The translations under genes and the position numbers were made by a program. Positions 6,781-24,000 of a stretch of 24,000 nucleotides of DNA are shown in pieces. Below the pieces are notes generated by a model. The model made no database searches. It was given only the letters and a program-made list of their open reading frames with translations, and had not been told where the DNA came from. Location of the stretch: the NCBI GenBank assembly GCA_023410055.1, contig JAEYQK010000054.1, forward strand, positions 24,758 through 48,757, in the 5' to 3' direction. The DNA is from Acidobacteriota bacterium (lineage in GTDB: Bacteria; Acidobacteriota; Terriglobia; Terriglobales; Acidobacteriaceae). Numbering within the stretch: the first letter of the stretch is position 1; the number at the start of each line of letters is the position of its first letter.

Positions 6781-6807
6781 GTGTAGGGACGGGGCTGTGC
6801 CCCGTCC
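6781..6807 (+). repeat. GTAG-headed GC hairpin, copy 1 (GTGTAGGGACGGGGCTGTGCCCCGTCC)
   Basis: 9-bp stem GGACGGGGC/GCCCCGTCC with loop TGT, 12 nt after the aminotransferase stop. An identical 27-mer occurs at 13031-13057. No T-run follows this copy. Confidence 0.8.
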
Positions 6808-6990: not shown

Positions 6991-7033
6991 TAGGGTGCCC
7001 CATTCTCGCGCAGCGAGGGTGGGGATTTTGACT
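6991..7033 (+). repeat. REP family 1, copy 1
   Basis: TAGGGTG head, then an 11-bp stem CCCCATTCTCG/CGAGGGTGGGG (two G-T wobbles) with loop CGCAG, then tail ATTTTGAC. Confidence 0.85.
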
Positions 7034-7117
7034 TACTTTCTGCTACAGCATGTTCGGATTCTGTAACAGGCGCAAGGTTGTACGAGCCAGAAGCACATTT
7101 CGCGTTAAGGTCGCTCC

Positions 7118-7699
7118 ATGCCTTGGGGACTCAAGCGCTTTCACGGAACGCGCGACCTTCACTTCATCACCTTCAGTTGTTATCGTCGCCAGCCGTTGCT
7201 CAATAGCCCTCACTCGAAACGTGCCTTCGAAGTGGTCCTCGAACAGGTACGGAGACAATACAACTTCTTCGTCACTGGATACGTGGTTATGCCCGAGCAC
7301 GTGCATCTTCTGATGAGCGAACCTGAAGACAAGAAACTCGCCTCGGCGCTGCAAGTGCTCAAACAACTGGTCGCGCAGCGACTCGGTGGCGGAAGTCAAT
7401 TCTGGCAGCCGCGCTACTACGACTTCAATGTCTGGAGCGAACTCAAGTGCAAAGAGAAGCTTCGCTACCTTCATCGGAATCCAGTAAAGCGGGGGCTCGT
7501 CGCGAGTCCCGAGGACTGGGAATGGAGCAGCTTTCGCCATTGGTTGACGGGCGGAACAGGTGTTGTCGAGATCGAGTCACAGTGGACCGCGCGTCGGCGG
7601 GAAAAGATGGGTATGGCAGTGAGGGTGAAAATCATCACACAAGAGATGAAAGCCCCACCCTCGCTGCGCGAGAATGGGGCACCCTCCAGATTGTCGTAG
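7118..7699 (+). CDS. REP-associated tyrosine transposase (RAYT; IS200-like Y1/HUH transposase)
   Basis: 193 aa. The N-terminus is MPWGLKRFHGTRDLHFITFSCY, the HUH motif is PEHVHLL, and the catalytic Tyr context is RYLHRNPVKRGLV. No tnpB or IS ends are present. The last codons (..PPSLRENGAPS) are encoded by the right-hand REP. Confidence 0.85.
   Translation: MPWGLKRFHGTRDLHFITFSCYRRQPLLNSPHSKRAFEVVLEQVRRQYNFFVTGYVVMPEHVHLLMSEPEDKKLASALQVLKQLVAQRLGGGSQFWQPRYYDFNVWSELKCKEKLRYLHRNPVKRGLVASPEDWEWSSFRHWLTGGTGVVEIESQWTARRREKMGMAVRVKIITQEMKAPPSLRENGAPSRLS
7649..7687 (-). repeat. REP family 1, copy 2 (inverted relative to copy 1)
   Basis: The plus strand reads AAAGCCCCACCCTCGCTGCGCGAGAATGGGGCACCCTCC, which is the reverse complement of the copy 1 core. 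Confidence 0.85.
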
Positions 7700-8043
7700 A
7701 ACGACTAATATCGCTTTAATACAATCGCATCTCAGGACGGGCCACCCCGCCCGCATAACACCGGCTAACGGGTCGGACTTTTCTGCGAGCATCTCGGGGG
7801 ACGTGATCCGAAGAAGCGCCGAGTATGAAAACGTATCAATAGAAATCTACGGGTTAGTTACGAGCCAAGAATCTGGCGACATTCTTGCCGTGGTTAACTG
7901 GAAGAAGAGAACGTGCGCGAGTTCTCAGTTGGCAAATGACTTGACATTTCGTCCGCTCTCAAAACCGAGTCGGTAATGGGTACGATGACAGGTGGCCCGG
8001 CCTGACAGTTACTCAACTCAGCAAGAGAATACTTAGGGTGCCC

Positions 8044-8087
8044 CATTCTTCGCGAAGCGAAGGGTGGGGCTTTTGACTTCTTGTCAC
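8044..8087 (+). repeat. REP family 1, copy 3
   Basis: TAGGGTGCCCCATTCTTCGCGAAGCGAAGGGTGGGGCTTTTGAC. It has a 12-bp stem with a paired T/A insertion relative to copy 1, and loop CGAAG. Confidence 0.85.
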
Positions 8088-11644: not shown

Positions 11645-11681
11645 TAGGGTGCCCCATCCTTGCGCAGCAAGGGTGGGTTTT
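11645..11681 (+). repeat. REP family 1, copy 4
   Basis: TAGGGTGCCCCATCCTTGCGCAGCAAGGGTGGGTTTT. It has a 10-bp stem CCCATCCTTG/CAAGGGTGGG with loop CGCAG. Confidence 0.85.
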
Positions 11682-13030: not shown

Positions 13031-13064
13031 GTGTAGGGACGGGGCTGTGCCCCGTCCTTTTCGT
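13031..13064 (+). terminator. GTAG-headed GC hairpin, copy 2, followed by TTTTCGTT (probable dnaN terminator)
   Basis: The same 27-mer as 6781-6807, here followed by a T-run, starting 33 nt after the dnaN stop. Confidence 0.65.
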
Positions 13065-13120: not shown

Positions 13121-13211
13121 CCCCCCTCCCCCCGGGGGTATTCGTACCACTGATGATGTAAACGAGTTAGCTGCAAAAATCTGACTGATGCTGACTGGCG
13201 TTTGACTGACA
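13121..13211 (+). repeat. ~90-nt 3'-UTR element, copy A
   Basis: CCCCCCTCCCCCC...CACTGATGATGTAAACGAGTTAGCTGCAAAAATCTGACTGATGCTGACTG... The 50-nt core 13148-13197 matches the reverse complement of 16945-16994 with one mismatch by eye. Confidence 0.85.
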
Positions 13212-13407
13212 GCCGACGAGTGTCCCGGGCTCCGCCGTATCGCAGCAGAGCTACCAATTCGTCATCCAAAGCCGCCAACACAAATCGCGCCTAGTCGAGG
13301 AATTGTGTTCTTCGTAGTCACGATAGCACTGATTTGCGCGAAGCAAACAAGCGCCTGTGAAAATTCCGGAAAATGGAACAGAGGTTGGAACGCTGGCCTC
13401 CGGCCGG

Positions 13408-13600
13408 CTGTCGCGAGGACGTCTCGTCCTCGCCTGCCGCGACGAGATTCGCATCAGAAACACAGCCTCAGCCCGGGCGGTCCGAGCCGCGCAGCGGCGT
13501 GAGTTAACTAGCCGGGGGCGTAAGCCCCCGGTCCAACGTCGCAAATCAATCCGCGTCCCGCAAGGGACGGCACGAATTTAGCCCGGCACGCAGTGCCGGG
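13408..13600. repeat. cluster of distinct GC-rich hairpins (BIME-like array)
   Basis: 13413-13433: 9-bp stem GCGAGGACG/CGTCCTCGC. 13475-13487: GCCG-CGCAG-CGGC. 13512-13531: 8-bp stem with GTAA loop. 13554-13569: 6-bp stem with GCAA loop. 13582-13600: 7-bp stem with CGCAG loop. Spacers share AACGTCGCA(A/C)AT. Confidence 0.75.
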
Positions 13601-16682: not shown

Positions 16683-16745
16683 ACTAGTACATAATCAGAC
16701 ATAGTAGTACCGATGTCAATCCATTTTACAGACGGCTGGCTATTG

Positions 16746-16910
16746 CCATTCAAGCCCGTTCTCCGGTCTAGTGGAAAACGCACCCTCATCGCTTTCAGTT
16801 CCTTGTTCCACTTTCCGGAATTTCCATAGCCCTTTGTTCACTTCACGCAAATTGCTGCTACATTGGTTCCGTTGGTGCACCGTTCAAAGCACGGTATTGG
16901 CTTGAGTGGG
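16746..16910 (+). repeat. split hairpin: arms CCATTCAAGCC / GGCTTGAGTGG separated by 139 nt
   Basis: CCATTCAAGCCC (16746-16757) and TTGGCTTGAGTGGG (16897-16910) are identical to the two arms of the compact hairpin at 20014-20044 (minus-strand reading). Confidence 0.6.
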
Positions 16911-16930
16911 ATAACGAGGGCTAGGGATCC

Positions 16931-17017
16931 TCAGTCAGACGTCAGTCAGCATCAGTCAGATTTTTGCAGCTAACTCGTTTAGATCATCAGTGATAGCGGG
17001 AAGGTGGGGGGAGGGGT
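16931..17017 (-). repeat. ~90-nt 3'-UTR element, copy B (inverted relative to copy A)
   Basis: TCAGTCAGACGTCAGTCAGCATCAGTCAGATTTTTGCAGCTAACTCGTTTAGATCATCAGTG...GGTGGGGGGAGGGG. It ends 15 nt from the obg stop. Confidence 0.85.
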
Positions 17018-18101: not shown

Positions 18102-18129
18102 GTTCTCAGTTCTCGGTTCTCAGTTGCCA
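18102..18129. repeat. tandem heptamer repeat (GTTCTCA GTTCTCG GTTCTCA GTTGCCA)
   Basis: Four consecutive 7-nt units lie directly upstream of the obg start. No inverted partner was found nearby. Confidence 0.7.
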
Positions 18130-18569: not shown

Positions 18570-18640
18570 CCTAGTACCTAGTACCTAGTTGCTAGTTGAA
18601 CCCGTCCGCTAAGAACTGGGTACTAGGTACTAGGTACTGG
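18570..18640. repeat. heptad-built inverted repeat in the rplU-rpmA spacer
   Basis: Arm CCTAGTACCTAGTACCTAGTTGCTAGTT (18570-18597) and arm AACTGGGTACTAGGTACTAGGTACTGG (18614-18640). Both arms have 7-nt periodicity, and the complementarity is imperfect. Confidence 0.8.
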
Positions 18641-18645
18641 TTTTT

Positions 18646-19119
18646 TTACTTTTTGCTGCTCTTCTTGGCAGCCGATTTCTTTGCCGGAGCCTTCTTGGCC
18701 GCAGTCTTCTTCGCAGCCGCCTTCTTCGCCGGAGCCGCCGAAGCTTCGATCGCCTCAGCAGACTTCTTCGGGGCCTTGGCTTTCTTCTCAGGAAGCGCCG
18801 GGGCGTCGAAGGTCTGTCCGTCAACGCTGATCTGCGTGATGCGAACCGCGACGAACGACTGGCGATGACCGTTCAGCTTCTTGTATTGCTTCTTCTTCTT
18901 GTAGTGGAAGACCAGGACCTTATCGCCCTTGCCTTCTTCGACTACCTGACCGACCACGCGCGCGCCCTCGGGCTTCGAGATCTTGCCGTCGTTGGCAACG
19001 GCGACGATATCGCCGAATTCCACGCTGCCGTTCTCGGCCGGCGCGAGCTTTTCAACTTTGACGACGTCGCCGGGTGCGACGCGATACTGCTTTCCACCAG
19101 CGCGGATTACCGCGTACAT
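18646..19119 (-). CDS. rplU: 50S ribosomal protein L21 with ~55-aa Ala/Lys/Pro-rich C-terminal extension
   Basis: The real start is M15 of ORF 18646..19161 (MYAVIRAGGKQYRVAPGDVVKVEKL). The core is ~104 aa. The tail is ..PEKKAKAPKKSAEAIEASAAPAKKAAAKKTAAKKAPAKKSAAKKSSKK. Confidence 0.93.
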   Translation of the reverse strand: MYAVIRAGGKQYRVAPGDVVKVEKLAPAENGSVEFGDIVAVANDGKISKPEGARVVGQVVEEGKGDKVLVFHYKKKKQYKKLNGHRQSFVAVRITQISVDGQTFDAPALPEKKAKAPKKSAEAIEASAAPAKKAAAKKTAAKKAPAKKSAAKKSSKK

Positions 19120-19425: not shown

Positions 19426-21705
19426 CTAATCGTTCGCTTGTTGCATCGCTGAGGCTAGGCCTGTGGGTGCGGTCCTCTTTTTGGCCTGTATTTCGATATA
19501 GACATTCACCAGCGACACGGCGGCCGGTGTCACCCCCGGGATGCGCGAGGCCTGGCCGATGGTCTGGGGGCGGACGCGCTGGAGCTTCTCTTTCATCTCG
19601 CGCGAGAGGCCGCTGACCGTCGAGTAGTCGAACCAGTCGGGAATTCGGCGCTGCTCGGCTTTGCGAAGGCGCTCGATGGCCTTCGTCTGCTGGCCGAGGT
19701 AGCCGGCGTACTTAATCTCGGTCTCGACCGACTTGAGTTCGTTCCAGATTTGAGAAGAAACTTGAGGGTGCCCCATCCTTCGCGCAGCGAAGGGTGGGTC
19801 TGTTCTAAACGCAGACAATAGCGGCTTGCGATTGCTCAGTTCCGTGCATTCATCCGCAAACGAGTGAGCGCGGCTAGTGCGGGATTCGAAGAACGCGGGG
19901 CTGAGTTCTCGAAGAACCGGGATTACGTCCTCGATCTGGACACCAGGGCGCTTGAGCACTTGGGCCAGCGTGGAGCCGAGGGCGTTGGAAAGATCGGTCG
20001 CGTTTCTTTCATCCCCACTCAAGCCAACAGAGGGCTTGAATGGGCCACCATTGGACGAAGCATCCAGAATCTCTCCTTCTGGTTCAACGTCCGCATCGCC
20101 GTTATTGCGAACTCCAGACGCCATACGTTCTTCCAGCGCGCGCGCGATCTTCTCCAGCGTCCCGCTGTTGACGCGCGTCTTTTCGAGCAGGTTGCTGAGG
20201 GCTTTCATGCGCTCTTGTTTGTCGAGGTAGTCGGCCCAGGCATCGTCGCGGATGAGGCCAATGCGGCGCCCGTACGGCGTGAGTCGGCGGTCGGCGTTGT
20301 CGATGCGCAGGTGCAACCGGAACTCGGCGCGCGAGGTGAACATCCGGTAGGGCTCGTTGGTGCCCTTGGAGATCAGGTCGTCGATAAGGATGCCGGTGTA
20401 GGCCTCGGTGCGATTGAGCACAAGAGGTTCTTCGCCCTTGATCTTCAGCGAGGCGTTGATGCCGGCCATGATGCCCTGGCACGCGGCTTCTTCGTAACCA
20501 CTCGTTCCGTTGATCTGACCAGCAAGATATAGTCCTGCGATCTTCTTGGTTTCCAGCGTGCGCTTGAGTTCCGTCGGATCGACCGAGTCGTACTCAATGG
20601 CGTAGCCCGGACGCAGCATGTCGGCCTTATCGAGGCCGGGGACGGAGTGCACCATCGCAATCTGCACGTCGTGCGGCAGCGAGGTACTCATTCCATTGAC
20701 GTAGATCTCGTGCGTGTGGACGCCCTCGGGTTCAAGAAAGAGCTGGTGCGTCGCGTGGTGCGGGAATTTGACGACCTTGTCCTCAATGCTTGGACAGTAT
20801 CGTGGACCGATACTTTTGATCTGGCCGCTGTACATCGGCGAGCGGTGAACGTTTTCCTTGATGACGCGCTGCGTCTCTTCGGTGGTAAAGGCGATGTAGC
20901 ACGGCACCTGAGCGTCGTGGTGCGTCACGCGGCGGGTGCGGAAGCTAAACGGCGTCGGGTCGGCATCGCCCGGTTGGACCTTGAACACGCTCCAATCGAT
21001 CGTGCGACCGTCGAGACGTGGAGGCGTGCCCGTCTTGAGGCGCACGACGCGGAAGCCCAATCGCCGTAGATGCTCTCCCAGCAATTGCGAAGGCGATTCA
21101 CCGCTGCGTCCGGCGGGATACTGCTGCTCACCGCAGTGGATCAGCCCGTTGAGGAACGTGCCCGTCGTAATGATCACGGCCTCAGCGCGAACTAGACGGC
21201 CGTCGCGCAGCTTTACGCCACGAAGAATCAGTGGCGAGTGGTTAGTGGCGAGTGGCGAGTCGTCTGCTGCGTCTTGCTGGCCACTGGCCACTGAGCACTG
21301 GCCACTTTCTTCTGTAATCAATTCCGCCACTTCTGCCTGCTTTACGTGCAGATTGGGCTCGCTCTCGAGCAGCTCTTTCATCTTCAGGCGGTACTGCTGC
21401 TTGTCACACTGGGCGCGGGGAGACCAGACGGCGGGACCGCGCGACGTATTCAGCAGACGGAACTGGATGCCGACCGCGTCGGTCACCTCGCCCATGATCC
21501 CGCCAAGCGCGTCGATCTCACGCACGAGGTGTCCCTTGGCGATGCCGCCCACGGCAGGATTGCAGGACATCTGCGCGATCAGATCGGCGTTGAGCGTATA
21601 CAGCGCGGTCTTCAAACCCATGCGCGCCGCAGCCATCGCGGCCTCGCAGCCAGCATGGCCTGCACCAACGACCACCACATCGAATTGTTCGGAGAAGGAG
21701 AGCAT
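19426..21705 (-). CDS. mnmG: tRNA uridine-5-carboxymethylaminomethyl(34) synthesis enzyme MnmG (GidA), 759 aa with three repeat-derived in-frame blocks
   Basis: FAD-binding N-terminus [23 protein letters not shown], plus [47 protein letters not shown] and C-terminal [18 protein letters not shown]. It is about 130 aa longer than E. coli MnmG (629 aa, from memory). Confidence 0.93.
19764..19800 (+). repeat. REP family 1, copy 5, inside the mnmG coding sequence (antisense to it)
   Basis: GAGGGTGCCCCATCCTTCGCGCAGCGAAGGGTGGGTC. It has an 11-bp stem with loop CGCAG, and in the mnmG frame it is translated as ..[13 protein letters not shown].. Confidence 0.85.
20014..20044 (-). repeat. 12-bp hairpin inside mnmG (minus strand CCCATTCAAGCC-CTCTGTT-GGCTTGAGTGGG)
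   Basis: The stem is perfect apart from one G-T wobble on the mnmG sense strand (an A-C mismatch on the other strand). It encodes ..[13 protein letters not shown].. The arms recur at 16746 and 16897. Confidence 0.75.
21230..21306. repeat. heptad-built inverted repeat inside mnmG
   Basis: Arm AGTGGCG AGTGGTT AGTGGCG AGTGGCG AGT (21230-21260) and arm CTGGCCACTGGCCACTGAGCACTGGCCACT (21277-21306). About 25 of 30 positions are complementary. It encodes [26 protein letters not shown] in frame. Confidence 0.8.
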
Positions 21706-22870: not shown

Positions 22871-22957
22871 TAGTACTCAGTACCCGGTACTCAGTAACCC
22901 AGTAAGTTCCAAAGGCGTCTCGATTCTGAGTGCTGAGTGCCGAGTACCGGGCACTGG
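22871..22957. repeat. heptad-built inverted repeat in the cytochrome c - rlmH spacer
   Basis: TAGTACTCAGTACCCGGTACTCAGTAACCCAGTA (22871-22904) pairs with TCTGAGTGCTGAGTGCCGAGTACCGGGCACTGG (22925-22957). There is a perfect 10-bp core CCCGGTACTC/GAGTACCGGG, and both arms have 7-nt periodicity. Confidence 0.75.
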
Positions 22958-23558: not shown

Positions 23559-23616
23559 CTGGCTGGTACCCGGCACCTGGTCGACTGCGTTCCACCAGGC
23601 ACCAGGCACTCGCCAG
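23559..23616. repeat. heptad-built inverted repeat in the rsfS - cytochrome c spacer
   Basis: CTGGCTGGTACCCGGCACCTGGT (23559-23581) pairs with ACCAGGCACCAGGCACTCGCCAG (23594-23616). Confidence 0.75.
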
Positions 23617-23619
23617 CAA

Positions 23620-24000
23620 CTACTTGTTCGCTTTCTTCTTCGGCGCGGCTTTCTTCGCAACAGCCTTCTTTGCGGGCTTCGCGGCCGTCTTCTTTGCTGC
23701 CTTCTTTGCTGGCGTACTCTTCTTCAGATCGTCGGGATGAAGCTTTTTTGCACTTTTCCAAAGACGTTCAAGGTCGTAGAATCCGCGCGCCTTTTCGGAA
23801 AAAACATGCACCACGAAATCAACATAGTCGAGCAGCACCCACTCGGCCTGCTTGTAGCCTTCGACGCTCTTGGGACGGAAGCCAAGTTTCTGGAGACGTT
23901 CTTCGACCCCATCAGAAATTGCCTGAAGCTGGCGCGGATTACTTGCGGAGCAGATAACAAAGTAGTCCGTAAATGCGCCGGAATTCTTTTCCAGTTCGAG
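23620..24000 (-). CDS. rsfS: ribosomal silencing factor RsfS (5' end beyond right edge) with Ala/Lys-rich C-terminal tail
   Basis: My own translation in the frame of ORF 23620..23838 stays open to position 24000: LELEKNSGAFTDYFVICSASNPRQLQAISDGVEERLQKLGFRPKSVEGYKQAEWVLLDYVDFVVHVFSEKARGFYDLERLW... This is the iojap/RsfS family. The tail is ..KKSTPAKKAAKKTAAKPAKKAVAKKAAPKKKANK. Confidence 0.88.
   Translation of the reverse strand, partial: LELEKNSGAFTDYFVICSASNPRQLQAISDGVEERLQKLGFRPKSVEGYKQAEWVLLDYVDFVVHVFSEKARGFYDLERLWKSAKKLHPDDLKKSTPAKKAAKKTAAKPAKKAVAKKAAPKKKANK

Follow-up and report, generated by a model that had tools for sequence, protein, structure and literature searches.

The window analysed here, to which all coordinates refer, is a stretch of 24,000 nt from an Acidobacteriota bacterium (GCA_023410055.1, contig JAEYQK010000054.1, positions 24,758-48,757 of the forward strand). 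The host is an uncultured soil acidobacterium. The window carries mnmG, encoding the essential tRNA-modifying enzyme MnmG, a universal and structurally solved protein whose length is normally fixed. The encoded protein (the query) has 759 residues, 130 more than E. coli MnmG (629 residues, gene taken from NC_000913), confirming the initial annotation, which had described an uninterrupted gene well above the usual length of ~620-630 residues. Alignment to the E. coli protein places the surplus at three sites and in a C-terminal tail of ~12 residues. Site 1 lies between E. coli D133 and R134 (25 residues in the query, 0 in E. coli), site 2 at ~489-499 (49 and 9 residues) and site 3 at ~535-539 (42 and 4 residues). 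The stretches at these sites, termed blocks 1 to 3, contain hairpin repeats of two kinds, namely repetitive extragenic palindromic (REP) elements and inverted repeats of 7-nt units. The features of the gene are as follows.

19426-21705, minus strand: mnmG open reading frame (ORF), 759 residues, ATG start, intact (Pfam, phmmer, AlphaFold, Foldseek)
21229-21303, minus strand: block 1 (residues 135-159), an inverted repeat of tandem heptads
19993-20139, minus strand: block 2 (residues 523-571), in the C-terminal helical domain (alignment to E. coli, low confidence in the structural model)
20013-20049, minus strand: hairpin of block 2, a REP family 1 variant in REP plus orientation on the gene strand, core hairpin at 20014-20044
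19759-19884, minus strand: block 3 (residues 608-649), with a clade-specific segment (residues 608-633) and a REP-coded part (residues 634-649)
19765-19798, plus strand: REP family 1 copy of block 3, antisense to mnmG (fold and alignment)

The mnmG ORF is free of internal stops and contains the GIDA FAD-binding (flavin adenine dinucleotide) and insertion domains as well as the C-terminal helical domains of MnmG/GidA proteins. Pfam GIDA matches residues 9-426 (E = 5e-168), with 418 residues covering a 391-position profile, SAM_GIDA_C matches residues 678-732 (E = 8e-26), and GIDA_C_1st is matched over the first 36 of its 96 profile positions and no more. Phmmer comparison with solved MnmG proteins (Aquifex, E. 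coli and Chlorobium) yields E-values of ~1e-180 (1e-185 for the PDB hits), the alignments being split in three by gaps at query residues 135-162 and ~513-657. The dinucleotide-binding GxGxxG motif for FAD (GAGHAG, residue 14) is retained, as are SCNPA with Cys48 and GPRYCPS with Cys304. The two cysteines correspond to the catalytic C47 and C277 of E. coli MnmG, and the motifs are invariant across 131 sequences. An independent assembly with 98% identity to the query (L001, ENA) differs outside the blocks by 52 synonymous and 9 nonsynonymous changes and within them by 4 and 4. By these sequence measures mnmG is under purifying selection and probably functional.

Blocks 2 and 3 contain oppositely oriented copies of one REP family. 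REP family 1 consists of a fixed head GGGTGCCCCAT, a variable self-complementary stem of 6-7 bp and a fixed tail GTGGGG, and its 12-mer head AGGGTGCCCCAT occurs five times in the window compared to 0.04 occurrences expected by chance. The copy in block 3 had been assigned to this family from the start, and its 33-nt core (19766-19798) is identical to 8036-8068 at 31 of 33 positions. The hairpin of block 2 had been treated as a family of its own and instead proves to be a family 1 variant. It is laid out as GGTGGCCCAT-TCAAGCC-loop-GGCTTGA-GTGGGG, forms a 12-bp stem at 20014-20044 (-21.7 kcal/mol, z = -2.7) and shares 34 of 38 positions with an intergenic copy in locus L074 (GGGGGTGCCCCATTCAAGCCCGCCTTTGGCTTGAGTGGGGAC). 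Because the L074 copy joins the canonical family 1 head and tail to the inner stem of the block 2 hairpin, both hairpins belong to the same family. The arms of the block 2 hairpin, said in the initial annotation to recur near 16746 and 16897, are found at 16899-16910 (12 of 12 positions) and 16745-16756 (11 of 12 relative to the matching arm). The copies outside mnmG and the associated REP-associated tyrosine transposase (RAYT) gene are listed below.

6992-7028, plus strand: REP family 1 copy on the 5' side of the RAYT gene, with GTAG in front
7118-7699, plus strand: RAYT gene, 193 residues, HUH motif HVH
7649-7685, minus strand: REP family 1 copy overlapping the RAYT ORF at its 3' end, in inverted orientation to 6992-7028
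8035-8068, plus strand: intergenic REP family 1 copy (BLAST and 12-mer matches)
11646-11677, plus strand: intergenic copy of REP family 1 on the 3' side of a DUF362 gene
16745-16910, plus strand: REP of the block 2 subtype with arms at 16745-16756 and 16899-16910 and ~140 nt of inserted DNA between them

The window therefore holds five canonical copies of the family, one variant and one that appears to be a REP split by inserted DNA (16745-16910). Of the canonical copies, three lie between genes, one runs into the end of the RAYT ORF (3' side) and the fifth is in mnmG, as expected of REPs, which are short imperfect palindromes present in many, mostly extragenic, copies. The RAYT protein matches NCBIfam NF047646 at 105.9 bits (cut-off 80) and Pfam Y1_Tnp, and its nearest solved relative is E. 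coli TnpA-REP (4ER8). The gene sits between inverted REPs that are 97% complementary, the layout typical of RAYT genes, in agreement with the REP/RAYT-type label given at the outset. REP family 1 was presumably spread by the RAYT transposase, and the copies in mnmG would then be RAYT-mediated insertions. The 3' REP at 7649-7685 is itself read through as the last ~13 residues of the RAYT ORF (KAPPSLRENGAPS).

A scan of metagenome contigs for the family 1 pattern identified 131 copies in 120 loci, 129 of which entered the stem and tag statistics. All six outer variable stem positions are paired in 103 of these 129 copies; the TCAAGCC stem of block 2 and the CCTTCGC stem of block 3 are each found in three. 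Among the five canonical window copies the tag is GTAG in one (6992-7028) and TTAG in two. Canonical copies (for example window 7023-7034 and 8064-8075) are followed by ATTTTG, with T at 53-70% of positions +2 to +5 across the 129 copies, a trailing T-run that makes them resemble intrinsic terminators. The sense-oriented copy inside mnmG has ATGAAAG in place of ATTTTG.

Block 1 represents a different class of repeat. The heptad inverted repeat originally noted at 21230-21306 is recovered by Tandem Repeats Finder (TRF) as period-7 arrays at 21277-21306 (4.3 units) and 21230-21260 (4.4 units) with a unit match of 82-83%. On the gene strand it reads (AGTGGCC)n, a 17-nt loop and (TCGCCAC)n. As RNA the region folds with -37.6 kcal/mol (z = -4.3), and none of 200 shuffles folds equally well. 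The right arm is identical at 23 of 23 positions to an intergenic array in the close relative L002. The intergenic heptad hairpins of the window have the design of block 1 with other 7-nt units:

18570-18638, minus strand: heptad inverted repeat, unit CCTAGTA, in the rplU-rpmA spacer (-39 kcal/mol, z = -6.1)
22874-22957, minus strand: heptad inverted repeat, units CTCAGCA / ACTGAGT, between rsfS and rlmH (TRF, fold z = -6.3)
23560-23615, minus strand: heptad inverted repeat, unit GCCTGGT, upstream of rsfS (TRF, fold z = -6.4)
18102-18125, minus strand: single heptad array, unit CTGAGAA, directly upstream of obg (TRF)

Hairpins of this design are present in the rplU-rpmA and rpmA-obg spacers of the query genome, L001 and L002, and the CTGAGAA unit found upstream of obg is the site-1 arm unit of mnmG in six other genomes. 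The single array without an inverted partner directly upstream of obg is seen in the same three genomes (window 18102-18125, L001 6580-6602, L002 6423-6447), with CTGAGAA as unit in the query genome and L001 and CTCGCCA in L002; position is kept and the unit is replaced. AGT or ACT occurs within 55% of heptad-array consensus units in the window and L001-L082 compared to 14% of random heptamers, which hints at a common AGT+NNNN plan for the units, recalling those of cyanobacterial STRR repeats. An Rfam scan returned no family covering any of the hairpins. Each block thus holds a hairpin repeat, and the initial description of the surplus as three repeat-centred blocks stands to that extent, but only ~50 of the ~116 block residues are recognisably repeat-coded, and no repeat origin is detectable for residues 608-633 of block 3.

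The distribution of the blocks marks them as derived insertions. We searched 1.84 billion cluster representatives with HMMER, which placed all Terriglobales MnmGs in one cluster, and used the next 137 full-length MnmG representatives, from other 50%-identity clusters, as outgroup. Outgroup proteins have medians of 0, 9 and 0 residues at sites 1, 2 and 3 and a median length of 629 residues. Within Terriglobales, 80 species-representative loci and four closer relatives were fetched, and 83 genes with 233 blocks were analysed. The 120 closest homologues listed span 685-815 residues. In all 82 other loci mnmG is uninterrupted (671-802 residues) with conserved synteny, so that the in-frame and stop-free state reported for the three insertions of the query extends to its relatives. 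Blocks occur at the same three sites, in frame, with 5-63, 1-78 and 2-83 residues, which means that near-empty sites exist within the order. The C-terminal third of the cluster representative P0121 is low-complexity sequence rich in Ser, Pro and Lys instead of a helical domain, probably owing to a frameshift in the gene call of its source assembly.

At least 12 repeat families are recognised in the Terriglobales blocks. They are shared between sites, appear in either orientation and also have intergenic copies. Signature peptides for 12 of them (such as CHPERSEAEPNEVEGPAV, EGHDFSRA, HVGTAAPGCPAE, RMGHP, SPRRHGDTE, NPRESVA, TTDNRQ/VVSCQL, NDQRPTTND, ENRELRTEN, LETRNSKLET and SPLATNH) are found in 58 of 78 blocks at site 1, 35 of 79 at site 2 and 40 of 76 at site 3, and nowhere else in the 83 proteins. 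At the DNA level, 66 of the 233 blocks match non-mnmG flanking DNA (265 kb) compared to 2 of 233 controls of equal length drawn from the conserved body of the gene. Of 50 flank places matched, 48 do not fall in conserved ORFs, and the remaining two are antisense artefacts (shadow ORFs). Blocks also match each other across sites in both orientations (236 BLAST matches between sites 1 and 2, 302 between sites 1 and 3, 45 between sites 2 and 3), which vertical descent of a linker cannot explain. Hairpin potential is elevated as well, with z < -2 relative to dinucleotide shuffles in 42 of 77, 18 of 76 and 16 of 59 blocks at sites 1, 2 and 3 and in 1 of 77, 2 of 76 and 4 of 59 controls. These z-scores replace a whole-block minimum free energy comparison with same-length windows of the same gene (30%, 20% and 11% of blocks below the 5th percentile), since its enrichment was weak and confounded by composition; BLAST self-inverted matches were uninformative as a hairpin measure for site 2. 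At the sequence level these comparisons show the blocks to be derived insertions sharing sequence with intergenic repeats. A family present in non-coding DNA also lies in frame inside an intact ORF and is absent from outgroup orthologues, which bears out the parallel drawn earlier with Rickettsia palindromic elements (RPEs).

Close relatives differ in what occupies each site. We compared the query with L001, L002, L084 and L085 at 80-98% identity and found the following occupants.

Site 1: AGTGGCC/G with TCGCCAC in the query and L001, L002 as the query; AGTCGTT with GACCAAC/GACGAAC in L084 and L085
Site 2: an opposite-orientation REP1 variant in the query and L001; REP1 reading RMGHP in L002, L084 and L085
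Site 3: REP1 in the query, L001 and L084; an unrelated Ser-rich element in L002 and L085

L001 has the same three blocks as the query with point differences only. The three site patterns are mutually incongruent and fit no single tree, which argues for repeated gain, loss or exchange of elements. At site 1 both heptad arms change together between lineages, and the inner stems of the three RMGHP REP1 copies at site 2 covary. REPs are nested between the site-1 heptad arms in about a dozen genomes, and in some genomes the arms are non-complementary and carry two different heptad types. The orthologues called for by the initial annotation thus contain blocks of variable content across Terriglobales and not homologous linkers of fixed length. 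By this comparison the blocks are not three one-off events but long-standing, order-wide hot spots with content turnover.

The repeat-coded stretches are predicted to form flexible surface loops. An AlphaFold model based on a 131-sequence alignment has a mean predicted local distance difference test score (pLDDT) of 91.6 and a predicted template modelling score of 0.93; it supersedes a first run on a shallow 57-sequence Terriglobales alignment (mean pLDDT 57.6, unusable). Confidence is low only in the C-terminal tail and in three segments, given here with pLDDT per 10 residues.

Residues 131-160: turn between strands 126-133 and 159-166; 69, 51, 71
Residues 531-570: between a helix ending at 529 and a helix starting at 565; 57, 45, 41, 64
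Residues 631-650: REP-coded part of block 3; 72, 63

Residues 608-630 of block 3 are confidently modelled (93, 91). Foldseek superimposes the model on solved MnmG with a target-normalised TM score of 0.90, and the three sites are not among the MnmE-contacting residues of MnmG listed in a 2025 cryo-EM paper (PMC12397908). The proposed mapping onto a structural model accordingly places the repeat-coded stretches in low-confidence loops and the core on solved MnmG, and in this model the blocks lie at the protein surface and leave the fold intact.

REP family 1 is found inside other proteins of related metagenomic bacteria as well. Among the 131 metagenome copies, 93 are not spanned by any open frame and 38 are, although most of these frames are apparently short or spurious. 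After Pfam checks three in-frame interior hosts were accepted, all reading xMGHP on the same strand and in the same frame as in mnmG:

L138, 11725-11762: NAD-dependent DNA ligase (LigA), adenylation domain
L151, 9219-9256: RNase R, between the RNB and S1 domains and beside a second REP type
L181, 9964-10001: ASPIC/FG-GAP protein

The phenomenon is thus proteome-wide at low frequency. Ten frames of at least 320 residues were inspected; two of them (L086 and L119) were rejected as in-frame insertions since their probable start codon comes after the REP.

Taken together, we consider it probable that the blocks represent tolerated, translated insertions of genomic hairpin repeats into permissive MnmG loops, filtered by reading frame and stop codons. 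Terriglobales MnmG would possess three insertion-tolerant loops, the turn of the beta-hairpin of the FAD-binding domain (E. coli D133|R134) and the inter-helix links at ~489-499 and 535-539, and these would have been colonised repeatedly by the genome's own hairpin repeats, REPs (presumably RAYT-spread) and heptad inverted repeats. Only insertions that keep the frame, lack stops and fall into permissive loops would survive, and as a result of this proposed filter the elements would be translated as disordered surface peptides with the enzyme core untouched. A hairpin resident in a loop-coding stretch may become the target for further hairpin elements, and its arms may turn over by slippage, recombination or template switching. 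Further insertion and arm turnover could together explain why site content differs by lineage while the site persists. In this proposal the blocks would be near-neutral.

Several observations weigh against this interpretation. About half of blocks 2 and 3 of the query has no recognisable repeat origin. The action of the RAYT on REP family 1 is putative, and the 129 metagenome copies have no conserved GTAG tag upstream, their positions -2 and -1 being CC in most cases. Frame and stop-codon conservation across the 233 blocks is what points to their translation. Conserved neighbouring ORFs (~85 kb) contain none of these repeats, so mnmG is unusually heavily loaded, and loop tolerance by itself does not account for this extreme concentration. 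Heptad arrays, counted with a relaxed inverted-repeat detector since the strict form missed the window's own copies, reach a density of 5.5 per kb in blocks compared to 0.11 in flanks and 0.03 elsewhere in mnmG. They are therefore denser within blocks than in whole flanks, intergenic DNA included, and the site-1 arrays hold a fixed position order-wide. Array density and fixed position could reflect selection on the nucleic acid instead of passive tolerance.

There is some chance, though we think it unlikely, that the heptad-array hairpins are an undescribed acidobacterial repeat class at fixed positions, actively homogenised or copied, or selected as nucleic-acid structures within an essential ORF (for example in control of MnmG synthesis), and not tolerated junk. 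All 83 genomes would have heptad hairpins at mnmG site 1, and the three close relatives examined have them in the rplU-rpmA and rpmA-obg spacers as well; fixed position combined with concerted unit replacement within and between arms would argue for a homogenising or copying mechanism or for selection on structure.

It is improbable that the hairpins, chiefly the site-1 heptad repeat, are simply selected mRNA or DNA structures acting in translation pausing, mRNA stability or processing, or protein binding, with the peptides as by-products. Such selection would fit the site-1 arrays, which stay in place in 83 genomes while unit and partner arm change together, the z < -2 found in 42 of 77 site-1 blocks and 1 of 77 controls, a 50-fold array density over flanks and the same-design hairpins in the conserved operon spacers of the query genome, L001 and L002. 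It fits poorly with the 45% of site-1 blocks that have no significant structure, the non-complementary chimeric arms at several loci and the six genomes that have just 5-12 residues at site 1. The block 1 hairpin of the window is moreover mismatched in every heptad, and no Rfam family matches.

It is very improbable that acidobacterial MnmG had the blocks from the beginning, as low-complexity linkers that resemble repeats and involve no insertions. Every Terriglobales homologue is long (671-815 residues) with blocks at the same three sites, and residues 608-633 are conserved among close relatives and confidently modelled, all of which a linker would explain. This explanation is nevertheless already contradicted by the evidence: outgroups lack the blocks, block DNA matches intergenic DNA and the RAYT-flanking REP, the same sequences appear at different sites in both orientations, unrelated sequences of similar length occupy one site in close relatives, and sites are near-empty in parts of the order.

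We see similarly little likelihood that the heptad arrays turn mnmG into a phase-variable contingency gene in which gain or loss of one 7-nt unit shifts the frame, switches the enzyme off and changes translational fidelity. Seven does not divide by three, the ORF does contain arrays of 3-4.4 units, and loss of MnmG alters decoding. All 83 genes are in frame, however, no frameshifted allele is present among the 120 homologues listed, and the arrays, with at most 4.4 units and a unit match of 82-83%, are short and imperfect, unlike those of contingency loci.

An assembly artefact or inactive gene copy, which the initial annotation had named as a possible undoing of its proposal and which the uncultured host and the role of repeats as a classic cause of misassembly might suggest, is scarcely credible given the same three blocks with point differences only in the independent assembly L001, the 52:9 ratio of synonymous to nonsynonymous changes outside the blocks, intact catalytic motifs, 82 of 82 other loci intact with conserved synteny and a model matching solved MnmG with a TM score of 0.90.

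The window contains further repeats and structured elements. A second REP family, tagged by GTAG (GTGTAGGGACGGGGCTGTGCCCCGTCC), has two 100% identical copies at 6781-6807 and 13031-13057, each just 3' of a gene (an aminotransferase gene and dnaN, respectively), and related GGACAGCC...GGCTGTCC REPs sit inside mnmG blocks of other genomes. An element of 190-250 nt is present in two copies, at 13145-13380 (minus strand) and 16804-16995 (plus strand), which share 65 nt at 94% and 57 nt at 79% identity. Both copies contain (TCAGTCAGNN)x3, end in GGGGGGAGGGG and are convergent with the neighbouring gene (dnaN and obg, respectively), and the copy at 16804-16995 sits inside the split REP. The element may be mobile or may encode a small RNA. 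Just upstream of the 13145-13380 copy, in a 770-nt intergenic region full of short GC hairpins, Rfam places an Acido-Lenti-1 RNA motif (13485-13531, minus strand) at 37.5 bits (gathering score 37). DNA with a 15-nt period (18646-18751) encodes the C-terminal tail of ribosomal protein L21, which is rich in Lys and Ala (AAKKxAAKK), and this periodic DNA also makes up the tail of another ORF, upstream of rsfS (23620-23731). A nearby replication origin was considered because dnaN lies in the window, and the GC-skew profile is without a clear switch.

With 233 blocks, 83 genomes and at least 12 families, MnmG offers hundreds of natural, datable insertions of mobile hairpins at three known loops. 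They make testable how often selfish or structural DNA becomes protein, what sets the tolerance of a site, whether hairpins attract hairpins and whether such peptides gain function. The phenomenon of RPEs and intragenic REPs is extended to free-living Acidobacteriota and tied to a RAYT gene within a single window, and a second, period-7 repeat class is indicated, of which we found no description. In practical terms, mnmG is a commonly used marker gene, and its alignments and phylogenies will be distorted by these blocks, as will domain calls, of which the broken GIDA_C_1st match is an example.

Our literature search found no precedent for a universal enzyme with three hot spots that stay fixed throughout an order and are colonised by many families, serially and in nested fashion, for heptad-array hairpins translated as 7-residue periodic peptides, or for a RAYT, its REPs and translated REP copies together in one window. 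The closest known systems share parts of this picture. RPEs were reportedly described by Ogata et al. in 2000 and 2002 and by Claverie & Ogata in 2003. Like the elements described here, they are interspersed palindromic repeats of non-coding DNA that also occur in frame in unrelated housekeeping genes, leaving the ORFs intact, and the inserts of both are thought to lie on the protein surface. RPEs are Rickettsia-specific families of 100-150 bp with no known transposase, whereas here REPs of 33-37 bp with a RAYT and heptad-array hairpins colonise one enzyme at three fixed sites, in a free-living soil phylum, across a whole order and with many families in turn. The acidobacterial elements (33-77 nt, no Rfam or other match) work like RPEs but do not belong to RPE-1 to RPE-10. 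RPEs, the textbook case of translated palindromic insertions, are summarised in PMC10969869 and also treated in PMC3733652.

RAYT-associated REPs inside genes have been reported before. GTAG/CGTC REPs occur inside genes of Opitutus, Thauera, Rickettsia and others, adding inserts of 20-82 residues, often in DNA-repair genes, DNA ligase, RNA helicases and tRNA synthetases (PMC3733652, Di Nocera et al. 2013). In view of this precedent the statement in the initial annotation that in-frame insertion was undescribed for REP/RAYT-type repeats is too strong. Neither MnmG/gidA nor Acidobacteriota appear in the supplementary intragenic REP lists of that survey. Both sets comprise short RAYT-associated REPs inside ORFs (singly or as dimers in the survey) with nucleic-acid enzymes as hosts, here MnmG, LigA and RNase R. 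Our elements lack a conserved GTAG tag, and the survey described no order-wide recurrent hot spots or nesting. The REP component alone is therefore of a known kind, and the order-wide triple hot spot and the hairpins of 7-nt units appear to be new.

The RAYT locus resembles REPIN/RAYT systems (Nunvar 2010; Bertels & Rainey 2011, PMC3116915) in that a single RAYT is flanked by inverted copies of a dispersed REP. REPINs are described as extragenic, whereas copies of REP family 1 are predicted to be translated inside essential genes. Tandem 7-nt arrays dispersed in the genome, many with AGT or ACT in the unit, are a property shared with the STRR repeats. These heptanucleotide repeats of heterocystous cyanobacteria, such as STRR1 (CCCCAGT) and STRR3 (CAACAGT), were reportedly described by Mazel et al. 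in 1990. The arrays found here are of the same period but differ in phylum and unit sequences, so that they are not STRR members; they are in addition paired as inverted repeats inside an ORF, and our literature search returned nothing linking STRR to them. In-frame fusions of miniature inverted-repeat transposable elements (ERIC, BOX, Correia and QMITE1; PMC10969869) likewise involve small non-autonomous elements that are read through in host ORFs. Those fusions are sporadic and strain-specific, whereas the insertions in MnmG are fixed at the same loops across an order.

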